Origin: Planctomycetota bacterium
Lineage (GTDB): Bacteria > Planctomycetota > Phycisphaerae > UBA1845
Assembly (NCBI GenBank): GCA_043806315.1
Contig: JAZDHF010000280.1
Location: 2,972 to 66,971, forward strand
Reading direction: 5' to 3'
Length of the DNA stretch: 64,000 nt
The translations under genes were made by a program, and so were the position numbers. Position 1 is the stretch's first letter; each line of letters begins with the position of its first letter. Below, one piece after another: positions 5,255-36,478 of the stretch. A model generated the notes under the pieces. It was given only the letters and a program-made list of their open reading frames with translations, was not told the DNA's origin and did no database searches.

Positions 5255-5725
5255 TCAGACGCTCTTGCCACGCGGTTTTCCGCGACGAAGAACCAAGGTG
5301 ACGCGACCATACGTCGCGCCCTCAAGATCTTCAAGCGCGTGCTCGATATCAACGAACTTCCCGAGCTTACTGGTCCAGTACCCGGTTGCGAGCTGCCGCG
5401 CTGCATGGGTGGGAACACCCTCCTTGTTCGCGAAAACAGCTATCTTCTCGTAGCCCTGCTCGACAGCGTGAGAATCGCACTCCTCATAGCCAAGAAACGA
5501 GTATGCTGACGCGTACGCTGCGACCGAGTACTCGACCGGCGAGCCTTCCGGCCAGAAGTACTGAGGGTGGGGCTCCCACCATTTGCCCTGGTCGCCCGCG
5601 GCCCAGGCGATGCAGTTGTACCGAACGTCGGACGGGCTCGTGATCGTATACCTCGCGGGGCGGAGTTTGGGGAACCTCGATTCGAGCTCGCCCTGGATCA
5701 GATCCACCGTTGTTCGTACCCCCAT
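5255..5725 (-). CDS. Hypothetical protein with candidate Cys/His hydrolase motifs
   Basis: ORF 5255..5818, ATG at 5725 (alternative GTG at 5707). Motifs YNCIAWAAG, PTHAARQ and DIEH. Last gene of the three-gene operon. Confidence 0.5.
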   Translation of the reverse strand: MGVRTTVDLIQGELESRFPKLRPARYTITSPSDVRYNCIAWAAGDQGKWWEPHPQYFWPEGSPVEYSVAAYASAYSFLGYEECDSHAVEQGYEKIAVFANKEGVPTHAARQLATGYWTSKLGKFVDIEHALEDLEGATYGRVTLVLRRGKPRGKSV

Positions 5726-6120
5726 CGGATCCAGGCTTCCGCCATGGCGTCGACGTCGCCGGAGGATGCCGGGGATACTGGATTGACTCCCGTGATGGCG
5801 TGTAACGCCCAGAACCAATGGTCGCGTTCACGTAGCAGTTCCCGTAGAAGGAGAGGCAGCGCAAGCGGTCCCATCCCGATGATTTGTTGGTAGGCTGGAT
5901 GCATGCACATTTGCGGAAGGGAGGAGAGAAACTTCGTTTCTTCTTTCCACACCTTTGCCAGCCGGGCGAACTTCTGCGGGACCGTCTCCATCTGTCGCGA
6001 AGCTGGATCCCAGTAGTGCTCGAGAACGCTGCCAAGCCGCTGACGCAGCGTTTGAGCGTCCGGGCTGCCGCCAGGAGTTTGGTCCGGGCCGGGCACCCAC
6101 GTGAACGGCTCGAACTTCAC
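5698..6120 (-). CDS. Hypothetical protein (helical, W-rich)
   Basis: ORF 5698..6171. The GTG at 6120 overlaps the upstream stop (GTGA), suggesting translational coupling. An alternative ATG lies at 6171. Confidence 0.5.
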   Translation of the reverse strand: MKFEPFTWVPGPDQTPGGSPDAQTLRQRLGSVLEHYWDPASRQMETVPQKFARLAKVWKEETKFLSSLPQMCMHPAYQQIIGMGPLALPLLLRELLRERDHWFWALHAITGVNPVSPASSGDVDAMAEAWIRWGYEQRWI

Positions 6121-29386: not shown

Positions 29387-29573
29387 GTGATCGCAAGCCG
29401 CCGGATTCTCACGAATCGTTTCAGCAGACCGCGGCCTGGGCCGTCTTTCGCTCACACATGCCGTAACCCCATGCAGGAGCCTTACTTGGGGACGGGGTGG
29501 CAGGTGTTTATCGGCCCGCTGCATGAACCTTGACCACGGATGGATTAGCCAGTCTACTAAGCAGGATGTGAAC

Positions 29574-30710
29574 ATGGGTGATATAGCCCTCCAGGAAACG
29601 GGCGTGTTCGAGCCGAACGGGCGAGCTGGAGGTTATCTCCGCTCGGGGGACGCCAACTACCGAATCCAGCCCGGCGACGCGCTGGTGACCCCGCAGGTTA
29701 CACGCGAGTTACGACTCCGCGGCGGCGAGACCATCGTCGGGACGGTTCGGGGCGGCGGCGACCCGCGCCGGGGCCGCGGCCGTGAGTTGCACGAGGTCGA
29801 GTCCGTCAATGGGCGCTCGGTCGATGATTACCTCGACGCCAAGCCCTTCGAAGAGCTGACCGCGATCGATCCGCAGGCGGCGGTCCGGTTCGAGACGCCC
29901 GGCGGGTCGCCGTCGATGCGCGTCGTTGATCTGATGACGCCCATCGGACTCGGTCAACGCGGACTCATCGTCGCGCCGCCGCGAACCGGTAAGACGATCC
30001 TGCTGCAACAGATGGCCGCCGGCGTGGCCGCGAACTACCCCGACGTCTACATGATGGTCCTGCTCATCGACGAGCGGCCTGAGGAAGTGACCGACATGCG
30101 CCGCACGGTCCACGGCGAAGTCGTGTTCAGCAGCAACGACCAGGACATCGCCAGTCACGTGCGCATCGCCCGCTTGATGATCGAGAAGGCCAAGCGCCTC
30201 GTCGAGTGCGGGCATGATGTGTTCGTTCTGCTCGACTCGCTGACCCGCGTGGGCCGGGCCTTCAACGCCGCCATCCGCACCAGCGGACGGATCATGTCCG
30301 GCGGACTGGACATCCGAGCGCTGACCGAGCCCAAGGCCATCTTCGGGGCCGCCCGCAACGTCGAGCACGGCGGGTCGCTGACCATCATCGCCTCGGCCCT
30401 GATCGACACCGGCAGCCGCATGGACGAAGTCATCTTCAACGAGTTCAAGGGCACGGGGAACATGGAGATCATGCTCTCGCGGGAGATGGCCAACCGCCGC
30501 GTCTGGCCCGCGATCGACCTCAATCAATCCGGCACGCGCAAGGAAGAGCGGCTGCTCTCCCCGGAGGCCCTCGCGGTCTCGCACAAAATCCGCCGCTCCC
30601 TCCTCGACCGCGACCCCATCCGCGCCATGGAGCAACTCAACGCCGCCCTGGCCAAGTTCCCCTCCAACGCCGAGTTTGTGGCCAAGTTCAACGAACGACT
30701 CTGGCGGTGA
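29574..30710 (+). CDS. rho: Transcription termination factor Rho
   Basis: Walker A APPRTGKT and LIDERPEEV. The ATG at 29574 is preceded by AGGA. The ORF track starts at 29523. Confidence 0.9.
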   Translation: MGDIALQETGVFEPNGRAGGYLRSGDANYRIQPGDALVTPQVTRELRLRGGETIVGTVRGGGDPRRGRGRELHEVESVNGRSVDDYLDAKPFEELTAIDPQAAVRFETPGGSPSMRVVDLMTPIGLGQRGLIVAPPRTGKTILLQQMAAGVAANYPDVYMMVLLIDERPEEVTDMRRTVHGEVVFSSNDQDIASHVRIARLMIEKAKRLVECGHDVFVLLDSLTRVGRAFNAAIRTSGRIMSGGLDIRALTEPKAIFGAARNVEHGGSLTIIASALIDTGSRMDEVIFNEFKGTGNMEIMLSREMANRRVWPAIDLNQSGTRKEERLLSPEALAVSHKIRRSLLDRDPIRAMEQLNAALAKFPSNAEFVAKFNERLWR

Positions 30711-30760
30711 CACGTCCAGGCACGAAGGCACGGAGGGACGGAGGGACGAAGGTAGGCAGG

Positions 30761-30836
30761 GACGGGGAGATCGTGCCACGTTGTGACACCTATGCGATGT
30801 TCCACGTGGAACATGATTTGCGCCCCCGGCGCGCGG
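30761..30836. repeat. About 76-bp repeat with GTTCCACGTGGAAC core (left flank of the ROCO-cyclase locus)
   Basis: Its reverse complement aligns without gaps to 34657-34735 at about 65-70% identity, with identical core-to-TGGCACG spacing of 20 nt. Confidence 0.5.
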
Positions 30837-31207
30837 AGTGGGCGCTCCCGGAACGACCCACCGACGCGGGTGCACGGCCTCCGCGGTCTCTGCCTATAGA
30901 ACTTGCGGGGTGATCGGCGGGTGGACGATCGCGGGGCGATCACCGCCCGCCCATTCCGAATTGGAAGGGGGCGGTCACGGCGCGGGAGCGGATCGCTCCC
31001 CGCGGACGGCGGAGGCGGCAGGCTGCGATCCAACAACCCTACTCGAAAAACAAGAATCTCCCCCTACTGTCGACGAGTAGGTCATCGGTGGGAGCCAATA
31101 GTAGGGGAAGGTGCGAGCACCTGTCCCACTCGGCTTCCGCGCCGTTGGCGCGCCGCCGATCGGAGGCGATAATTCGCACCCGCTGCAGGTGTGATGAGGG
31201 ATGACCC

Positions 31208-31327
31208 ATGGCCGACGCTTTCGCATACGACGTCTTCCTCAGCTACAACTCAAACGACAAGGCGCGTGTGCGGCGGCTGGCCGAGTGGTTCCAGGCAGCA
31301 GAAGCGCAGCGGGAATCTTATGGCTGA
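31208..31327 (+). pseudogene. TIR-domain N-terminal remnant (39 codons)
   Basis: Own translation: MADAFAYDVFLSYNSNDKARVRRLAEWFQAAEAQRESYG*. YDVFLSY-x3-D is the first TIR strand motif. Its stop overlaps the start of the next gene. Confidence 0.55.
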
Positions 31328-34300
31328 CAAGAATCAGGAAGAGCAATGGCGGCGCGCCGACGATGAGGTGCGGAAGAATCTGCCGCCGGGCGTGAAGCTC
31401 GTCCGTACACTGCGCGGGCACACGGACTGGATTGGGCGGATCGCGTGGTCGCCCGACGGGCGGCTTATCGCATCGCCCTCGATGGACATGTCCATTCGCC
31501 TCTGGGACGCGGAAAACGGCAAGGAAACCCGCCGATTCGAAGGGCACCAGCACGGGGTCAATAGCGTCGTTTTCAGCCCGGACGGGGCACGACTGGCCAG
31601 CGGAAGCTACGACAATACCGTGTGCCTCTGGGACGTGGGAACCGGCGAGGAACTCCGCCGATTCAAAGGGTACGAGCACAGCGTCAATGGCGTCGTCTTC
31701 AGCCCCGACGGGGCGCGACTGGCCAGCGGAAGCGACGACAACACCGTGCGGGTGTGGGACGTGGGAACCGGCAAGGAATTCCGCCGATTCGGAGGGCACC
31801 AGGGCTGGGTCAGTAGCGTCGTATTCAGCCCCGACGGGGCACGACTGACCAGCGGGGGCGGCGACAACACCGTGCGGCTGTGGGACGTGAGAACCGGCAA
31901 GAAACTCCGCCGATTCGAAGGGCACCAGGAATGGGTCCCTAGCGTCGTATTCAGCCCGGATGGGGCACGACTGGCCAGCGGAAGCGACGACAACACCGTG
32001 CGGCTGTGGGACGTGGGAACCGGCAAGTTGCTTCGCACGCTGGAAGGACACACGGACTCCGTGATTTGCGTTGCGTTCCTCTCCGATGGGCGGCTCCTGG
32101 CTTCGAAGAGCAGTGATCACACCGTCCGTCTGTGGAGCGTCGATCCCGGCGCGTGCGTGGCGGTGATCCCCGAGCCCACCTCACGCTACCTTTGGCCACC
32201 CGGTCTCGCCTTCAATCCTCGCCTTCCGAGGCTCGCCACGGTCGGTTCCGATCCGGGCGCGCCCGCGGACAACCCGGGATCAACAGAGACACTCCGCGAC
32301 TGCGTCATCCACATCTGGCAACTGGACCTCGCCGTCCTACTCGGCCAAGTGGCTGAGCCAAGCGCCCACTACGTCAACGCCAAGGTGGTTTTGGTGGGCG
32401 ACACCGGCGTGGGTAAAACCGGGCTGAGCCTCGTGCTGAACCACCAGCCCTATAGGGAGACCGACTCCACGGCGGGGCGGCATGTCTGGACGTTCGATTC
32501 ACGGGAGGTCCCCGTCGGGCTCAATGTCGCGCAGACACGCGAGACGTTGTTGTGGGATTTGGCCGGACAGCCGGGCTATCGAGTCATCCACCAGTTGCAC
32601 CTCAACGAAGTGGCCGTCGCCCTCGTGGTGTTCGACGCCCGCAGTGAGACCGATCCGCTCGCCGGCGTCCGGCACTGGGAGCGCGCCTTGCGCTTGGCGC
32701 AGCAGCGGCAGGGGACTTCGGGCGTCCCCATGAAGAAGTTCCTGGTCTCCGCCCGCAACGATCGCGGCGGCGTCTCCATCGGCGAGGAACGAGTTAAGAC
32801 GATCCTCGATGAATTCGGGTTCGACGGCTATTTCAAGACCAGCGCCAAGGAAGGCTGGCAGGTCAAGGAACTGCGGGCGGCCATCGAGAAGGCGATCGAG
32901 TGGGAAACGCTCCCGGAGGTTTCGTCCTCGCAATTGTTCGCCGACATCAAGTCGTTCCTGCTAGAGGTGAAGAAGACGGGCCGGCTCTTGGCGCCGGCGA
33001 GCCAGCTTTACGACGACTTCGCCCGTCAGCATCCCGACACGGCGGCGAAAACGGCGAACCTTCGTGACCAGTTCGAGACCTGCACCGGGCGGCTGGAAAA
33101 CCGCGACCTGATCCGCCGCCTCACCTTCGGCGGCTATGTGCTCCTCCAGCCGGAGTTGCTGGACGCCTACGGCTCCGCGATGGTCAACACGGCCAGGGAA
33201 GAGCCGGACGGGCTCGGTTCCATCGCCGAAGAAATCGCCCTGACCGGCAAGTTCTTCGTACCCAAGGAGCAGAACATCAAGGATCCCGGCCAGGAGCAGT
33301 TGCTGTTGCACGCCACCGTGGAGGAACTGGTCCGGCACGACCTGGCCCTGCGCGAGAACGCGGATGACGGGCGCTACCTCGTCTTTCCATCGCAGTTCAA
33401 CCGCGACTACGAAGACGCGCCCGAACCCAAAGGCAAGGCGGCCGCGCTGACCTTCGAGGGCCCGGTCCAGAGCCTTTATGCAACGCTCGCGGTGCGGCTG
33501 GGTCACAGCGGCTTGTTCACTACCGGGCGGGCGGAGATGTGGCGCAACGCGGCCATCTTCACCGCCACGGCGGGCGGCAAGTGCGGGCTTTTCCTACACG
33601 AATTCGCCGAGGCCCGCGGGCGTTTGATCCTCTTCTTCGATGACCACGCCAGCAGCGAGACGCGGTTCCACTTCGAGGAATTCGTCCTGGCCCATGCCCG
33701 TCGCCGTGCGCTGGACGGGACCGTGGAACTCGTGCGGTTTTTCATGTGTCCCGACTGCGCTGACCCGGTGCCCGATAGCTACGTGAAGCGGCTTAGGGAT
33801 AAAGGAACGATGGCGTTCAACTGTCCCTGCGGAGGGACGGTGTCGCTGGTCGAGCCGAAGGAGCGCATTCGCTTCCCGTCGCAAGTCGAGGCCATGGACA
33901 AATCCGCCGACCGGCAGCGGGATTTCGATGCGTTCGTCATGTCGGCCAAAGGCGAGACGAGCACCAAGGACTTTCACGAATGGGCCGGAGGCGAGCGGGT
34001 TACGCTGGCGATCGTGTTCACCGACGTGATCGGCTCGACGGCGCTGAGCGAAGAAATCCGGGAAGAGGCCATGAACGAAGTGCGGCGGGCGCACTTTGTC
34101 CAGAGCCGCAAGTTGCTGGCGCAGTTCAAAGGCCGGGAAATCAAGACCATAGGCGACAGCTTCATGGCCGCGTTCAAGGCCGTGGACGCGGCCCTGGATT
34201 ACGCGATTGCCTTGCAGGTCAGCACCGGCGATCCGCACGTGCAGATCCGCGCCGGCATCCATATCGGCCCGATGCAGGTGGAGGAAGGCGACGTGTTCGG

Positions 34301-34499
34301 CGGAATCGTGAACTTCGCCGCCCGCGTGGTCGGCGCCATCAAGGGCGCTGAGATTTGGTTGAGCGACCGCGCCAAGGAGGACATTGACCGGCTCGGGGCC
34401 TCGCGGCACAAACGGTTGGGATGGAAACGACACGAGGGCGTTACCATGAAGGGTTTCCCCGGCATGTTCACGTTGTGGTCGATGCAAGAAACCGGCTAG
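31320..34499 (+). CDS. WD40 - Roc GTPase - COR-like - class III nucleotide cyclase multidomain protein
   Basis: 1059 aa from MADKNQEE. Seven WD40 blades. P-loop GDTGVGKTG and DLAGQ (32382-32906). Central region with a FFMCPDC...NCPCGG knuckle. Cyclase motifs FTDVIGST, KTIGDSFMAAF and IVNFAARV (33987-34496). Confidence 0.8.
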   Translation: MADKNQEEQWRRADDEVRKNLPPGVKLVRTLRGHTDWIGRIAWSPDGRLIASPSMDMSIRLWDAENGKETRRFEGHQHGVNSVVFSPDGARLASGSYDNTVCLWDVGTGEELRRFKGYEHSVNGVVFSPDGARLASGSDDNTVRVWDVGTGKEFRRFGGHQGWVSSVVFSPDGARLTSGGGDNTVRLWDVRTGKKLRRFEGHQEWVPSVVFSPDGARLASGSDDNTVRLWDVGTGKLLRTLEGHTDSVICVAFLSDGRLLASKSSDHTVRLWSVDPGACVAVIPEPTSRYLWPPGLAFNPRLPRLATVGSDPGAPADNPGSTETLRDCVIHIWQLDLAVLLGQVAEPSAHYVNAKVVLVGDTGVGKTGLSLVLNHQPYRETDSTAGRHVWTFDSREVPVGLNVAQTRETLLWDLAGQPGYRVIHQLHLNEVAVALVVFDARSETDPLAGVRHWERALRLAQQRQGTSGVPMKKFLVSARNDRGGVSIGEERVKTILDEFGFDGYFKTSAKEGWQVKELRAAIEKAIEWETLPEVSSSQLFADIKSFLLEVKKTGRLLAPASQLYDDFARQHPDTAAKTANLRDQFETCTGRLENRDLIRRLTFGGYVLLQPELLDAYGSAMVNTAREEPDGLGSIAEEIALTGKFFVPKEQNIKDPGQEQLLLHATVEELVRHDLALRENADDGRYLVFPSQFNRDYEDAPEPKGKAAALTFEGPVQSLYATLAVRLGHSGLFTTGRAEMWRNAAIFTATAGGKCGLFLHEFAEARGRLILFFDDHASSETRFHFEEFVLAHARRRALDGTVELVRFFMCPDCADPVPDSYVKRLRDKGTMAFNCPCGGTVSLVEPKERIRFPSQVEAMDKSADRQRDFDAFVMSAKGETSTKDFHEWAGGERVTLAIVFTDVIGSTALSEEIREEAMNEVRRAHFVQSRKLLAQFKGREIKTIGDSFMAAFKAVDAALDYAIALQVSTGDPHVQIRAGIHIGPMQVEEGDVFGGIVNFAARVVGAIKGAEIWLSDRAKEDIDRLGASRHKRLGWKRHEGVTMKGFPGMFTLWSMQETG
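31410..32165 (+). repeat. Tandem 126-bp WD40-coding repeats (six units)
   Basis: Units start at 31410, 31536, 31662, 31788, 31914 and 32040. Units 2-5 share near-identical stretches of about 60 nt (cgactggccagcggaagcgacgacaacaccgtgcgg.tgtgggacgtgggaaccggcaag). Confidence 0.85.
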
Positions 34500-34656
34500 G
34501 TGCGCCAATGGGCGGGGTTCGATACCGCGTCTCACGACCTCCGCCCGACGCCCCGACTTTCCCGCCACTTCGAGTTTCCGGGCGACCGCTGCGCGACCGT
34601 TTTCCCCCCGATCACCCGCGAAGTTCTCTCAGTAGATGAAGTGTGTCTGCGCCCAG

Positions 34657-34735
34657 CCCGCGCGCACGGTGCGGGAGATTTGTTTCACGTGGAACAACGC
34701 GGCGATGCCAATGACTGGCACGGACCTGTCGTCCC
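34657..34735. repeat. About 79-bp repeat with GTTTCACGTGGAAC core (right flank, inverted relative to 30761-30836)
   Basis: See the 30761-30836 feature. Confidence 0.5.
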
Positions 34736-35477: not shown

Positions 35478-35957
35478 TCACCGTCGGACGTCGTACATGG
35501 CCATGAGGCACTTGGCGAGATCGGAGCGGCCGGGATTGCGCAAATGGGCACCGGCGATGGCGACTTGCAGGCTGTCGCGTTTGGAACCCGCGTCGGCCAC
35601 CCGTACGATGGTCGTGCCGGACTTGCCCTCGTGCGGAGTCAGCCCCGCGCGGAGGGCATACCCGGCCGTGAACGCGATCAGTACGCTCGCTGCGTAGCGA
35701 AGAAGCCCGTGCGACAACCACGCCAACGTCCGCGGCGGCGACTCGCTGAGGATCAAACGGTCGCCCACGCGGCGGACGCTCACCGCTCGCGGTTCGGGGA
35801 GGGCTTGCAGGCTCCGCACGGCCCTGCTCATGGACTCGTATTCGGCACGGCACGGCGCGCATTGCGCGAGATGGGCCTGGAAGGCCGGACGGTCGGCATC
35901 GGAAAGCTCACCGCCCAAGGCGTCGGCCAGCAGCATTTGGAAATCTTCGCACTTCAT
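35478..35957 (-). CDS. Anti-sigma factor (zf-HC2 type)
   Basis: MKCEDFQMLLADALGGEL...HLAQCAPCRAEY, then a TM helix. Its start overlaps the sigma gene stop (ATGA). Confidence 0.7.
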   Translation of the reverse strand: MKCEDFQMLLADALGGELSDADRPAFQAHLAQCAPCRAEYESMSRAVRSLQALPEPRAVSVRRVGDRLILSESPPRTLAWLSHGLLRYAASVLIAFTAGYALRAGLTPHEGKSGTTIVRVADAGSKRDSLQVAIAGAHLRNPGRSDLAKCLMAMYDVRR

Positions 35958-36478
35958 GGTTGCACCTCGTCGGCCCATCGAGGCCGCAGTCGGTCCCGCA
36001 CCGCCTGCACGGCCCGCAGGTAGTGCGTCTTGACCGTCGAAACCGCCACATTCATCTCCGCCGCAATCGCCGCGAAGGTCATCTCATCGTACACCTTGGC
36101 GACCAGCACGCTCCGCTGGATGTCGCTCAAGCGGTCCAACGCGGAAGCGAAGTCCTCTCGTAGCGTCGCACGATCCAGCATCTCAACCGCCCCTTCGTCC
36201 GCCGCCCGCAGGTCCATTGTGTCGGCGACCGGTCCCACATCCGCCTGACGCTTCCGACACATATCAATCGCCCGATTCAACGTGACCCTCCTGAGCCATC
36301 CGCGCGGCTGCGACGGTCGGCCCTGCGTGCATTGTTGGTCCCATCGAAGAAACACGTCCTGCACCACGTCGAGGGCGTCGTGATGCCGCCCCATGAATCG
36401 ATAGGCCCAGCGGTACACCTGCCCGGCATACTGCTCGAACCCGCCGGACCTTGAACCTTCCACCGATGCGGTGGGCAC
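35954..36478 (-). CDS. ECF (sigma-70 family) RNA polymerase sigma factor
   Basis: 174 aa. Region 2 (DALDVVQDVFLR) and region 4 HTH (MTFAAIAAEMNVAVSTVKTHYLRA). Confidence 0.85.
   Translation of the reverse strand: MPTASVEGSRSGGFEQYAGQVYRWAYRFMGRHHDALDVVQDVFLRWDQQCTQGRPSQPRGWLRRVTLNRAIDMCRKRQADVGPVADTMDLRAADEGAVEMLDRATLREDFASALDRLSDIQRSVLVAKVYDEMTFAAIAAEMNVAVSTVKTHYLRAVQAVRDRLRPRWADEVQP

Follow-up and report, generated by a model that had tools for sequence, protein, structure and literature searches.

Introduction

Cleavage of NAD+ by TIR domains requires a loop and a conserved glutamate. Bacterial TIR effectors of the TIR_2 type, including Thoeris ThsB-like proteins and those of related PADLOC models, share the N-terminal signature F/Y-D-V-F-L-S-x-x-x-x-D followed by the helix start R-x-L-A-E. 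The 39-codon open reading frame (ORF) that is the subject of this report, hereafter the stub, retains this signature. However, whereas TIR immune effectors possess the complete domain, only ~20% of it is represented in the stub, and both the loop and the conserved glutamate presumably fall in the missing part.

The protein encoded immediately downstream of the stub, P0001, has its nearest described counterparts in the Roco proteins, such as Chlorobium tepidum Roco and LRRK1/2, with which it shares a Roc-type GTPase and, to judge by a predicted model of moderate confidence, may share a Roc-COR-like fold. In contrast to the LRR-Roc-COR organization of these proteins, which a 2019 review gave as the only prokaryotic Roco arrangement (PMC6337361), the P0001 family is organized as WD40-Roc-COR-cyclase, with or without a TIR domain, and its COR region is undetected by Pfam. 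The WD40-Roc-COR-cyclase architecture may not have been described so far.

Gene-fragment relics that lie beside an intact partner provide a third comparison. Like these relics, the stub is truncated, is disrupted in frame and is homologous to sequence at the same genomic position in relatives. It differs from typical examples in that it keeps a start codon and ribosome-binding site and ends inside the first codons of the next gene. The stub was analyzed in its context within a 64-kb stretch of Planctomycetota DNA (the window).

Results

Anatomy of the stub and the start of the downstream gene

Direct translation of the window from the ATG at 31208 to the TGA at 31325-31327 yields 39 codons that specify the peptide MADAFAYDVFLSYNSNDKARVRRLAEWFQAAEAQRESYG* (Table 1), and the peptide and coordinates given in the initial annotation proved exact on re-translation. 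The TGA had also been described as overlapping the ATG of the downstream gene at 31320. The two ORFs do overlap, sharing the 8 nt ATGGCTGA, but the ATG triplet itself is untouched and the TGA lies 3 nt past it. The stop codon is an out-of-frame reading of GCT GAC, codons 2-3 of the large gene. Both the stub and the gene begin with MAD, as noted originally. Duplication as the source of this likeness was rejected: MAD, MAE or MAK is usual in TIR-less relatives, and the TIR-bearing proteins start with MTT, MSK or MSN. The common MAD is a coincidence.

Table 1. Features of the stub and of the downstream gene in the window.
Feature	Position	Strand	Description
39-codon stub ORF	31208..31327	+	31 TIR-derived codons and 8 codons of junction/out-of-frame sequence, then TGA
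Stub C-terminal tail			WFQAAEAQRESYG; final part of the 39-residue peptide
TIR-homologous segment	31208..31300	+	Equivalent to codons 1-31 of the TIR at the N-terminus of orthologues; covers the first strand and the onset of the first helix
Junction	31301..31319	+	TIR homology already ended; uncertain origin
Shine-Dalgarno-like GAGGGA	31196..31201	+	6 nt 5' of stub ATG; read from sequence
Sigma-70-like promoter match TTGGCG-17-GATAAT	31145..31173	+	35 nt upstream of stub ATG; weak evidence
P0001, WD40 - Roc GTPase - COR-like - class III cyclase, 1059 aa, intact	31320..34499	+	Pfam, structure matches, family profile
WD40 region of P0001	~31395-32165	+	Pfam, about seven repeats
Ras/Roc of P0001	32382-32894	+	Pfam
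Cyclase of P0001	34005-34388	+	Pfam

In GAGGGA, the former TIR reading frame has kept its ribosome-binding context. A single sigma-70-like site was observed in the interval 30600-31450, compared to 0.1 expected from shuffled sequences. Together, this site and GAGGGA suggest that the old expression signals have survived.

The frame of the large gene is open upstream to 31173 and includes an in-frame GTG at 31191 and ATG codons at 31194 and 31320. Automatic annotation could therefore call a 1101-1102-aa product, with an N-terminal extension of 42-43 residues that is without a homologue. Relatives support 31320 as the start: many TIR-less proteins begin MAD[K/Q]NQEE[Q/K]W, the sequence ATGGCTGA also opens the gene in loci L050 and L058, and either ATGGCTGA or ATGGCTAA is the native start in TIR-less relatives that have no stub. 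The gene possesses its own GGGAA motif 4 nt before the ATG, as does the TIR-less locus L044. The NCBI product P0001 ('adenylate/guanylate cyclase domain-containing protein' of a Planctomycetota metagenome-assembled genome) likewise starts at 31320; an exact-product look-up with the large protein of the window returned no record. As judged by alignment with relatives, ATG 31320 is the standard TIR-less start of the family and is homologous to an internal methionine in the linker of the TIR-bearing orthologues P0024 and P0008.

The stub resembles the beginning of a TIR domain

The Pfam TIR_2 profile (PF13676) aligned residues 9-32 of the stub with profile positions 1-24 of 122 (E 0.0036; 18.2 bits). 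This score falls short of the curated domain cut-off of 28 bits, as is expected because the stub comprises only a fifth of the domain. The PADLOC model PDC-S66 matched the stub with an E value of 3e-4. The same model matches the TIR region of orthologue P0024, whose TIR_2 domain is complete (profile 1-122, 99.5 bits) and which is also matched by the ThsB, bSEFIR and TIR-NLR models. When the P0024 TIR was used as a tblastn query, a match was obtained at 31208-31285 with 73% identity and an E value of 1e-6.

A family profile was built from eight orthologous sequences that span the TIR, the linker and the entry to the WD40 region. Positions 5-35 of this profile correspond to 31208-31300 in the stub frame, with E values of 2e-8 in a six-frame search of the whole window and 7e-9 in a search of upstream regions. 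Positions 154-184, which include linker and WD40 entry, correspond to 31317-31406 in the frame of the large gene and thus to the first 29 residues of P0001. The two matches are separated by 16 nt, and a third was not found in any of the six frames of the window. At the nucleotide level, most of 15 TIR-gene 5' ends from other genomes aligned with the stub region in blastn over 55-86 nt at 75-83% identity, with the similarity beginning ~5 nt before the ATG (31203-31207) and fading by 31285-31300. The stub shares 16-21 of 31 amino acids with 14 TIR starts in ungapped alignment, and residues 5-31, which carry the N-terminal strand and first-helix signature, align with all 14 without gaps.

The TIR resemblance of the stub is far beyond chance, with four independent tests in agreement. 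The first strand and helix of a TIR domain that had been recognized by eye in the initial annotation are matched by TIR_2, PDC-S66, the family profile, tblastn and blastn; the TIR profile match on which that reading had been made to depend was obtained.

The downstream gene encodes a WD40, Roc-type GTPase and cyclase protein

P0001 matches Pfam Roc (48.4 bits; cut-off 27) and Ras (50.9 bits), and solved Rab and Roc structures are matched by sequence. The Guanylate_cyc domain scored 48.2 bits (cut-off 21.9), and solved mycobacterial cyclases match with an E value of 1e-13. The ~350 residues between the GTPase and the cyclase produced no match to Pfam COR, even at E 10. In an AlphaFold model of residues 331-890, for which the pLDDT of 63 is moderate, the best structural match was the Chlorobium tepidum LRR-Roc-COR protein 6hlu (E 3e-15; 538 columns). 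RocCOR 3dpu and LRRK1/2 also matched this model, the alignments to these Roc-COR tandems spanning 535-600 columns, as did isolated COR 3dpt. The label 'ROCO-cyclase' applied initially to the gene is therefore reasonable at the level of the predicted fold, but is not matched by a Pfam COR domain.

The WD40 repeats at 31503-32027 are near-identical in DNA (126-nt period, 4.2 copies, 86% matches), and the WD40 region is the most variable between orthologues, with 54-77% identity compared to 87-89% for Roc-cyclase. Such a pattern points to concerted evolution, or to a rapid turnover, of the repeats that presumably form the sensor.

The stub and the large gene are bracketed by an imperfect inverted repeat (30760-30950 and 34570-34734; ~71% identity over ~200 nt). 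Each arm contains a palindrome, TGTTCCACGTGGAACA (30798-30813) and TGTTTCACGTGGAACA (34681-34696), that is found nowhere else in the 64 kb, with zero occurrences expected. A bracketing repeat was not found around orthologues. The repeat could delimit an inserted cassette or represent paired regulator sites. The neighboring genes resemble housekeeping functions, with a Rho-like gene at 29523-30710, an ECF sigma factor at 35954-36478, GNAT and glycosyltransferases, and do not have the look of a defence island. No homology of the interval 30711-31202 to any of the fetched loci was found.

Variable occurrence of the TIR domain among orthologues

The Roc-cyclase part of the protein retrieved >2000 proteins when used as query, the top 120 of which are 73-89% identical. 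The hosts of these 120 are Planctomycetota, Verrucomicrobiota, Acidobacteriota, Nitrospirota, Bacteroidota, Betaproteobacteria and the archaea Methanothrix and Methanosarcina. In view of this level of identity across phyla, the gene of this family evidently moves horizontally. Most of the top 120 are ~1050 aa in length without a TIR, and some consist only of Roc-cyclase. Seven possess a full N-terminal TIR, two a partial N-terminal TIR, and ~8 a C-terminal TIR.

Overall, ~10% of close orthologues bear an N-terminal TIR in a TIR-WD40-Roc-COR-cyclase arrangement of ~1200 aa. Examples are P0008, P0023, P0024, P0048, P0088, P0108, L007, L008 and L010, among which P0048 is named by NCBI as 'TIR domain-containing protein [Methanothrix sp.]'. 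The N-terminus of these proteins reads M..F.YDVFLSHN..DK.RVRRLAERLR.AG.RVWFDEW... and is followed by a linker of ~45 residues that ends ..(M)PT.EQEEQWRRADEEVRKNLPPGVKLVRTLRGH. Their Roc-cyclase is 81-85% identical to that of P0001, with which they have the linker-to-WD40 entry ..QEEQWRRADEEVRKNLPPGVKLVRTLRGH in common. The stub matches codons 1-31 of these orthologues, with similarity reaching ~5 nt before the start codon. Compared to them the window is without positions 36-153, the frame is changed and the gene starts at the internal methionine. Thus, the search of orthologous loci for an intact fused or adjacent TIR, which had been proposed as a check, was positive, with fusions in orthologues of 73-89% identity, and the suggested ancestral TIR-WD40-NTPase architecture is supported by the TIR-WD40-Roc-COR-cyclase forms.

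The position of the TIR varies within the family: in addition to N-terminal locations, it may be C-terminal (P0033, P0038, P0053, P0055) or encoded just downstream (L020, L022). On a tree of the core domains, the window protein groups in a clade in which every called gene lacks a TIR, and the N-terminal TIR forms are polyphyletic. The TIR-bearing forms are scattered over this tree, and the TIR is clearly an optional module that is frequently gained or lost. Certain loci have neighbors of the defence type: L043 has PIN, TIR, ORF6N, TIR and SIR2 genes upstream and MazE/PIN downstream, L046 has Mrr, PhdYeFM, PIN and HEPN, and L002 has AbiEii.

The missing segment and the junction

Profile positions 36-153, equivalent to ~118 codons or ~330-355 nt, are gone from the locus, along with a change of frame. 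The missing TIR positions were not found elsewhere in the 64-kb window, and splitting of the gene by an insertion was rejected as the source of the stub on these grounds. The missing part includes the conserved ..SDWVGLERS.. region of the orthologues, which presumably holds the catalytic glutamate. The remainder in the stub cannot form a TIR domain.

Secure homology to the linker and WD40 entry starts at 31320. The 3' part of the junction, CGGGAATCTT, resembles the sequence just 5' of the start codon in TIR-less L044, where CGGGAATCTT plus ATGGCT matches ..CGGAACAATCTTATGGCT... The 12-nt sequence AATCTTATGGCT is common to the window and L044 but not to TIR-bearing linkers, and the 5' untranslated region of the large gene carries CGGGAATCTTATGGCTGAC. 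Comparison of 31301-31319 with the TIR (GLRVWFDEW region) or linker of L001, L002 and L003 yielded chance-level identities except for the short motif CGGGAATCT. Repeats, microhomology and shared k-mers were sought at the junction and none was found. As the 9-19 nt of the junction have no assignable source and the 12 nt AATCTTATGGCT fit L044 and not TIR linkers, a simple internal deletion in one fused gene is not proven. The event could be either an internal deletion in a fused gene or a recombination that joined the TIR 5' end to a start of the TIR-less type.

Decayed TIR sequences in related loci

The closest fetched relative, P0002 (locus L001), is 89% identical to the window protein in Roc-cyclase; across the N-terminus and WD40 region the two align gap-free at 77% identity. 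The two proteins are sisters in a neighbor-joining tree. Neither a TIR nor a stub is present in L001. Instead, linker positions 133 onward lie in frame upstream of the GTG start and are preceded by unrelated AT-rich DNA. Since the window keeps positions 5-35 and L001 keeps 133-153, the common ancestor of the pair most probably possessed the entire TIR and linker, and the losses would have occurred by different events.

Other relatives display further states of decay. A 1-nt frameshift at position 108 in L003 produces a separate 142-aa TIR ORF that overlaps the large gene. Frameshifted TIRs are also found in L034 and L041, possibly as sequencing errors of those metagenome-assembled genomes. The TIR in L006 is internally deleted, and L024 and L035 contain linker relics.

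Partial TIR copies were also observed at several loci. In L039 (1231-2545) and L006 (1674-2774), from unrelated metagenome-assembled genomes, a TIR 5' stub is followed by a DUF433 and DUF5615 (PIN-like) pair and by a second TIR start. These stubs comprise codons 1-29, or 1 to about 45. By look of the alignment, the two TIR 5' copies in L039 are near-identical over ~70 nt. The second copy in L006 and a copy in L040 (604-700), from one genome but different contigs, have an identical breakpoint and following sequence. The pattern in L039 and L006 looks like a cassette insertion that duplicated the TIR 5' end. L043 harbors two extra TIR N-terminal copies at 361-2504 (profile 7-108 and 3-95; ~175 bits each) upstream of an intact TIR-WD40-Roc-cyclase gene. 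An ORF6N gene lies between these two copies, the second of which extends into the SIR2_2 gene that follows it, all within a dense TIR/SIR2/PIN defence cluster. In L044, a degenerate TIR start, MSEEFKDDVFLSDSSKSG... (MSEEFKDDVFLSDSS..), is located at 5692-5830, 8 nt past the stop codon of the TIR-less gene for P0003, and is 77.5% identical to window positions 31206-31254 over 49 nt. TIR stubs are thus found downstream as well as upstream of family members. Among all loci examined, no second genome with the stub of the window was found.

Discussion

The stub is, with high confidence, a non-functional relic that consists of the first 31 codons of a TIR domain, with the original ribosome-binding site and start codon, that once preceded the gene for P0001. 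Two features of a pseudogene fragment are evident in the stub, namely significant homology at the corresponding position in relatives, and truncation with disruption of the frame. The lost TIR most likely was the N-terminal domain of the P0001 gene itself, as in ~10% of orthologues. A deletion or illegitimate recombination would have excised a stretch that begins at TIR codon 32 and takes in almost all of the TIR-WD40 linker, ~118 codons in all. With it would have gone all that a TIR needs to fold and to cleave NAD+, and the frame would have shifted, leaving a normal TIR-less gene that starts at ATG 31320. The protein would retain the WD40 sensor, the Roc-COR switch and the cyclase output, and would have lost the TIR effector. 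The stub ORF would now lie in the 5' leader of the large gene, which presumably is transcribed from the former TIR promoter, and the stub may still be translated. The loss may have been tolerated or favored as the TIR is optional and potentially toxic. The original proposal of a decayed TIR lost by deletion is supported by the homology and by the missing segment, with which internal deletion and recombination are both compatible.

An alternative is that the large gene was TIR-less beforehand and that the stub goes back to a TIR gene of its own, or to the TIR 5' segment of a cassette border, situated upstream and joined to the large gene by deletion or recombination. This is unlikely, although it retains an appreciable chance; the stub would still be a relic. 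The large gene has a standard TIR-less start, the ~10-18 nt 5' of its ATG resemble L044 and not TIR linkers, and the window clade is TIR-less on the core tree, all of which fit a separate TIR. TIR 5' pieces of the same subfamily at cassette borders in L039, L006 and L043, and the stub after the L044 gene, also are in keeping with such an origin. However, the in-frame linker relic in L001 is continuous with the gene, which speaks for a fused TIR in the recent past of the lineage. Moreover, the stub is positioned exactly where the fused TIR begins in orthologues, and nothing remains of an intervening gene or intergenic region other than 9-19 unassigned nt.

There is little likelihood that the 39-codon ORF has been selected as an upstream ORF (uORF) that delivers ribosomes to, or regulates, the start of the large gene via the ATGGCTGA overlap. 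The layout has both elements of coupling, an initiation codon preceded by a ribosome-binding site, and a stop codon that adjoins a downstream start: the Shine-Dalgarno-like GAGGGA 6 nt before ATG 31208 is good, the ORFs overlap by 8 nt, a promoter-like site is situated just upstream and, after the rearrangement, transcription of the large gene must cross the stub. Yet the overlap is a by-product; as ATGGCTGA or ATGGCTAA is native to stub-less relatives, the stop/start overlap was rejected as a designed coupling signal. In addition, GGGAA lies 4 nt before the ATG of the large gene, as in L044. The uORF, which the initial annotation had offered as the alternative, is without comparative support: the 39-codon ORF is missing from L001, the closest fetched relative, rather than being conserved in a setting devoid of longer TIR homologues, and the TIR profile matches the stub.

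Further searches with a bearing on the uORF gave negative results. The family profile found no TIR match upstream of the TIR-less loci searched (for example L001, L004, L044, L046, L050 and L058). A metagenome scan with the first 150 residues of P0001 yielded nothing above 64% identity and no stub upstream in the relevant loci. The leader showed no extra stability of folding relative to shuffled sequences (z = -0.35) and no credible Rfam family above threshold, the best being a fly lncRNA model at E 0.21. A 40-aa version of the stub had no candidate sharing three 5-residue words in a collection of 5.8 billion sequences, which is a weak negative as the search employed a word index; the stub does not correspond to a catalogued small protein. 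The stub and the large gene may conceivably be coupled in translation; ribosomes that terminate at 31327 could re-initiate at 31320 in a hand-over between the two ORFs.

An assembly artefact, in which a chimera of TIR-bearing and TIR-less strains or the dropping of ~350 nt would mask a true genome with an intact TIR or no stub, is very improbable: the contig does derive from a metagenome-assembled genome, and decayed TIRs elsewhere also occur in such genomes, where frameshifts may be errors, but the junction has no repeat or shared k-mer to mislead an assembler, its flanks are unique sequence, ~350 missing nt plus a frame change are atypical of base-calling error, and comparable structural decays exist in unrelated assemblies (L001, L006, L039).

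A broader and speculative idea, to which only a slim chance is assigned, is that the conserved first ~30 codons of this TIR subfamily act as a recombination anchor through which defence loci trade small cassettes and entire effector or sensor modules, so that stubs would be scars of exchange instead of products of random decay. Campbell-type integration of circular DNA that carries a copy of the TIR 5' end, or recombination between neighboring TIR genes, would be example routes. Hints of this come from the window, the L039 stub and L006 copy 2/L040, three independent cases in which the breakpoint falls at codons ~29-34, from the copies that flank the DUF433/DUF5615 pair in L039, from the three TIR 5' copies in L043 and from the downstream stub in L044.

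As the relic of a lost domain, the stub is an ordinary gene fragment that is unusually cleanly documented. For purposes of annotation, it should not be called a gene, nor should the downstream gene be called a TIR protein. The history of the locus would be that of a WD40-Roc-COR-cyclase protein that once carried or adjoined a TIR effector and that now signals, if at all, only via the cyclase. Together with the differing relics in relatives, the stub shows that the TIR is an optional module that has been lost repeatedly in a family whose members are 73-89% identical across bacterial phyla and methanogenic archaea, some of which sit among toxin-antitoxin, SIR2, Mrr and AbiE genes. The family offers natural pairs of TIR-plus and TIR-minus alleles with which the contribution of each output can be tested.
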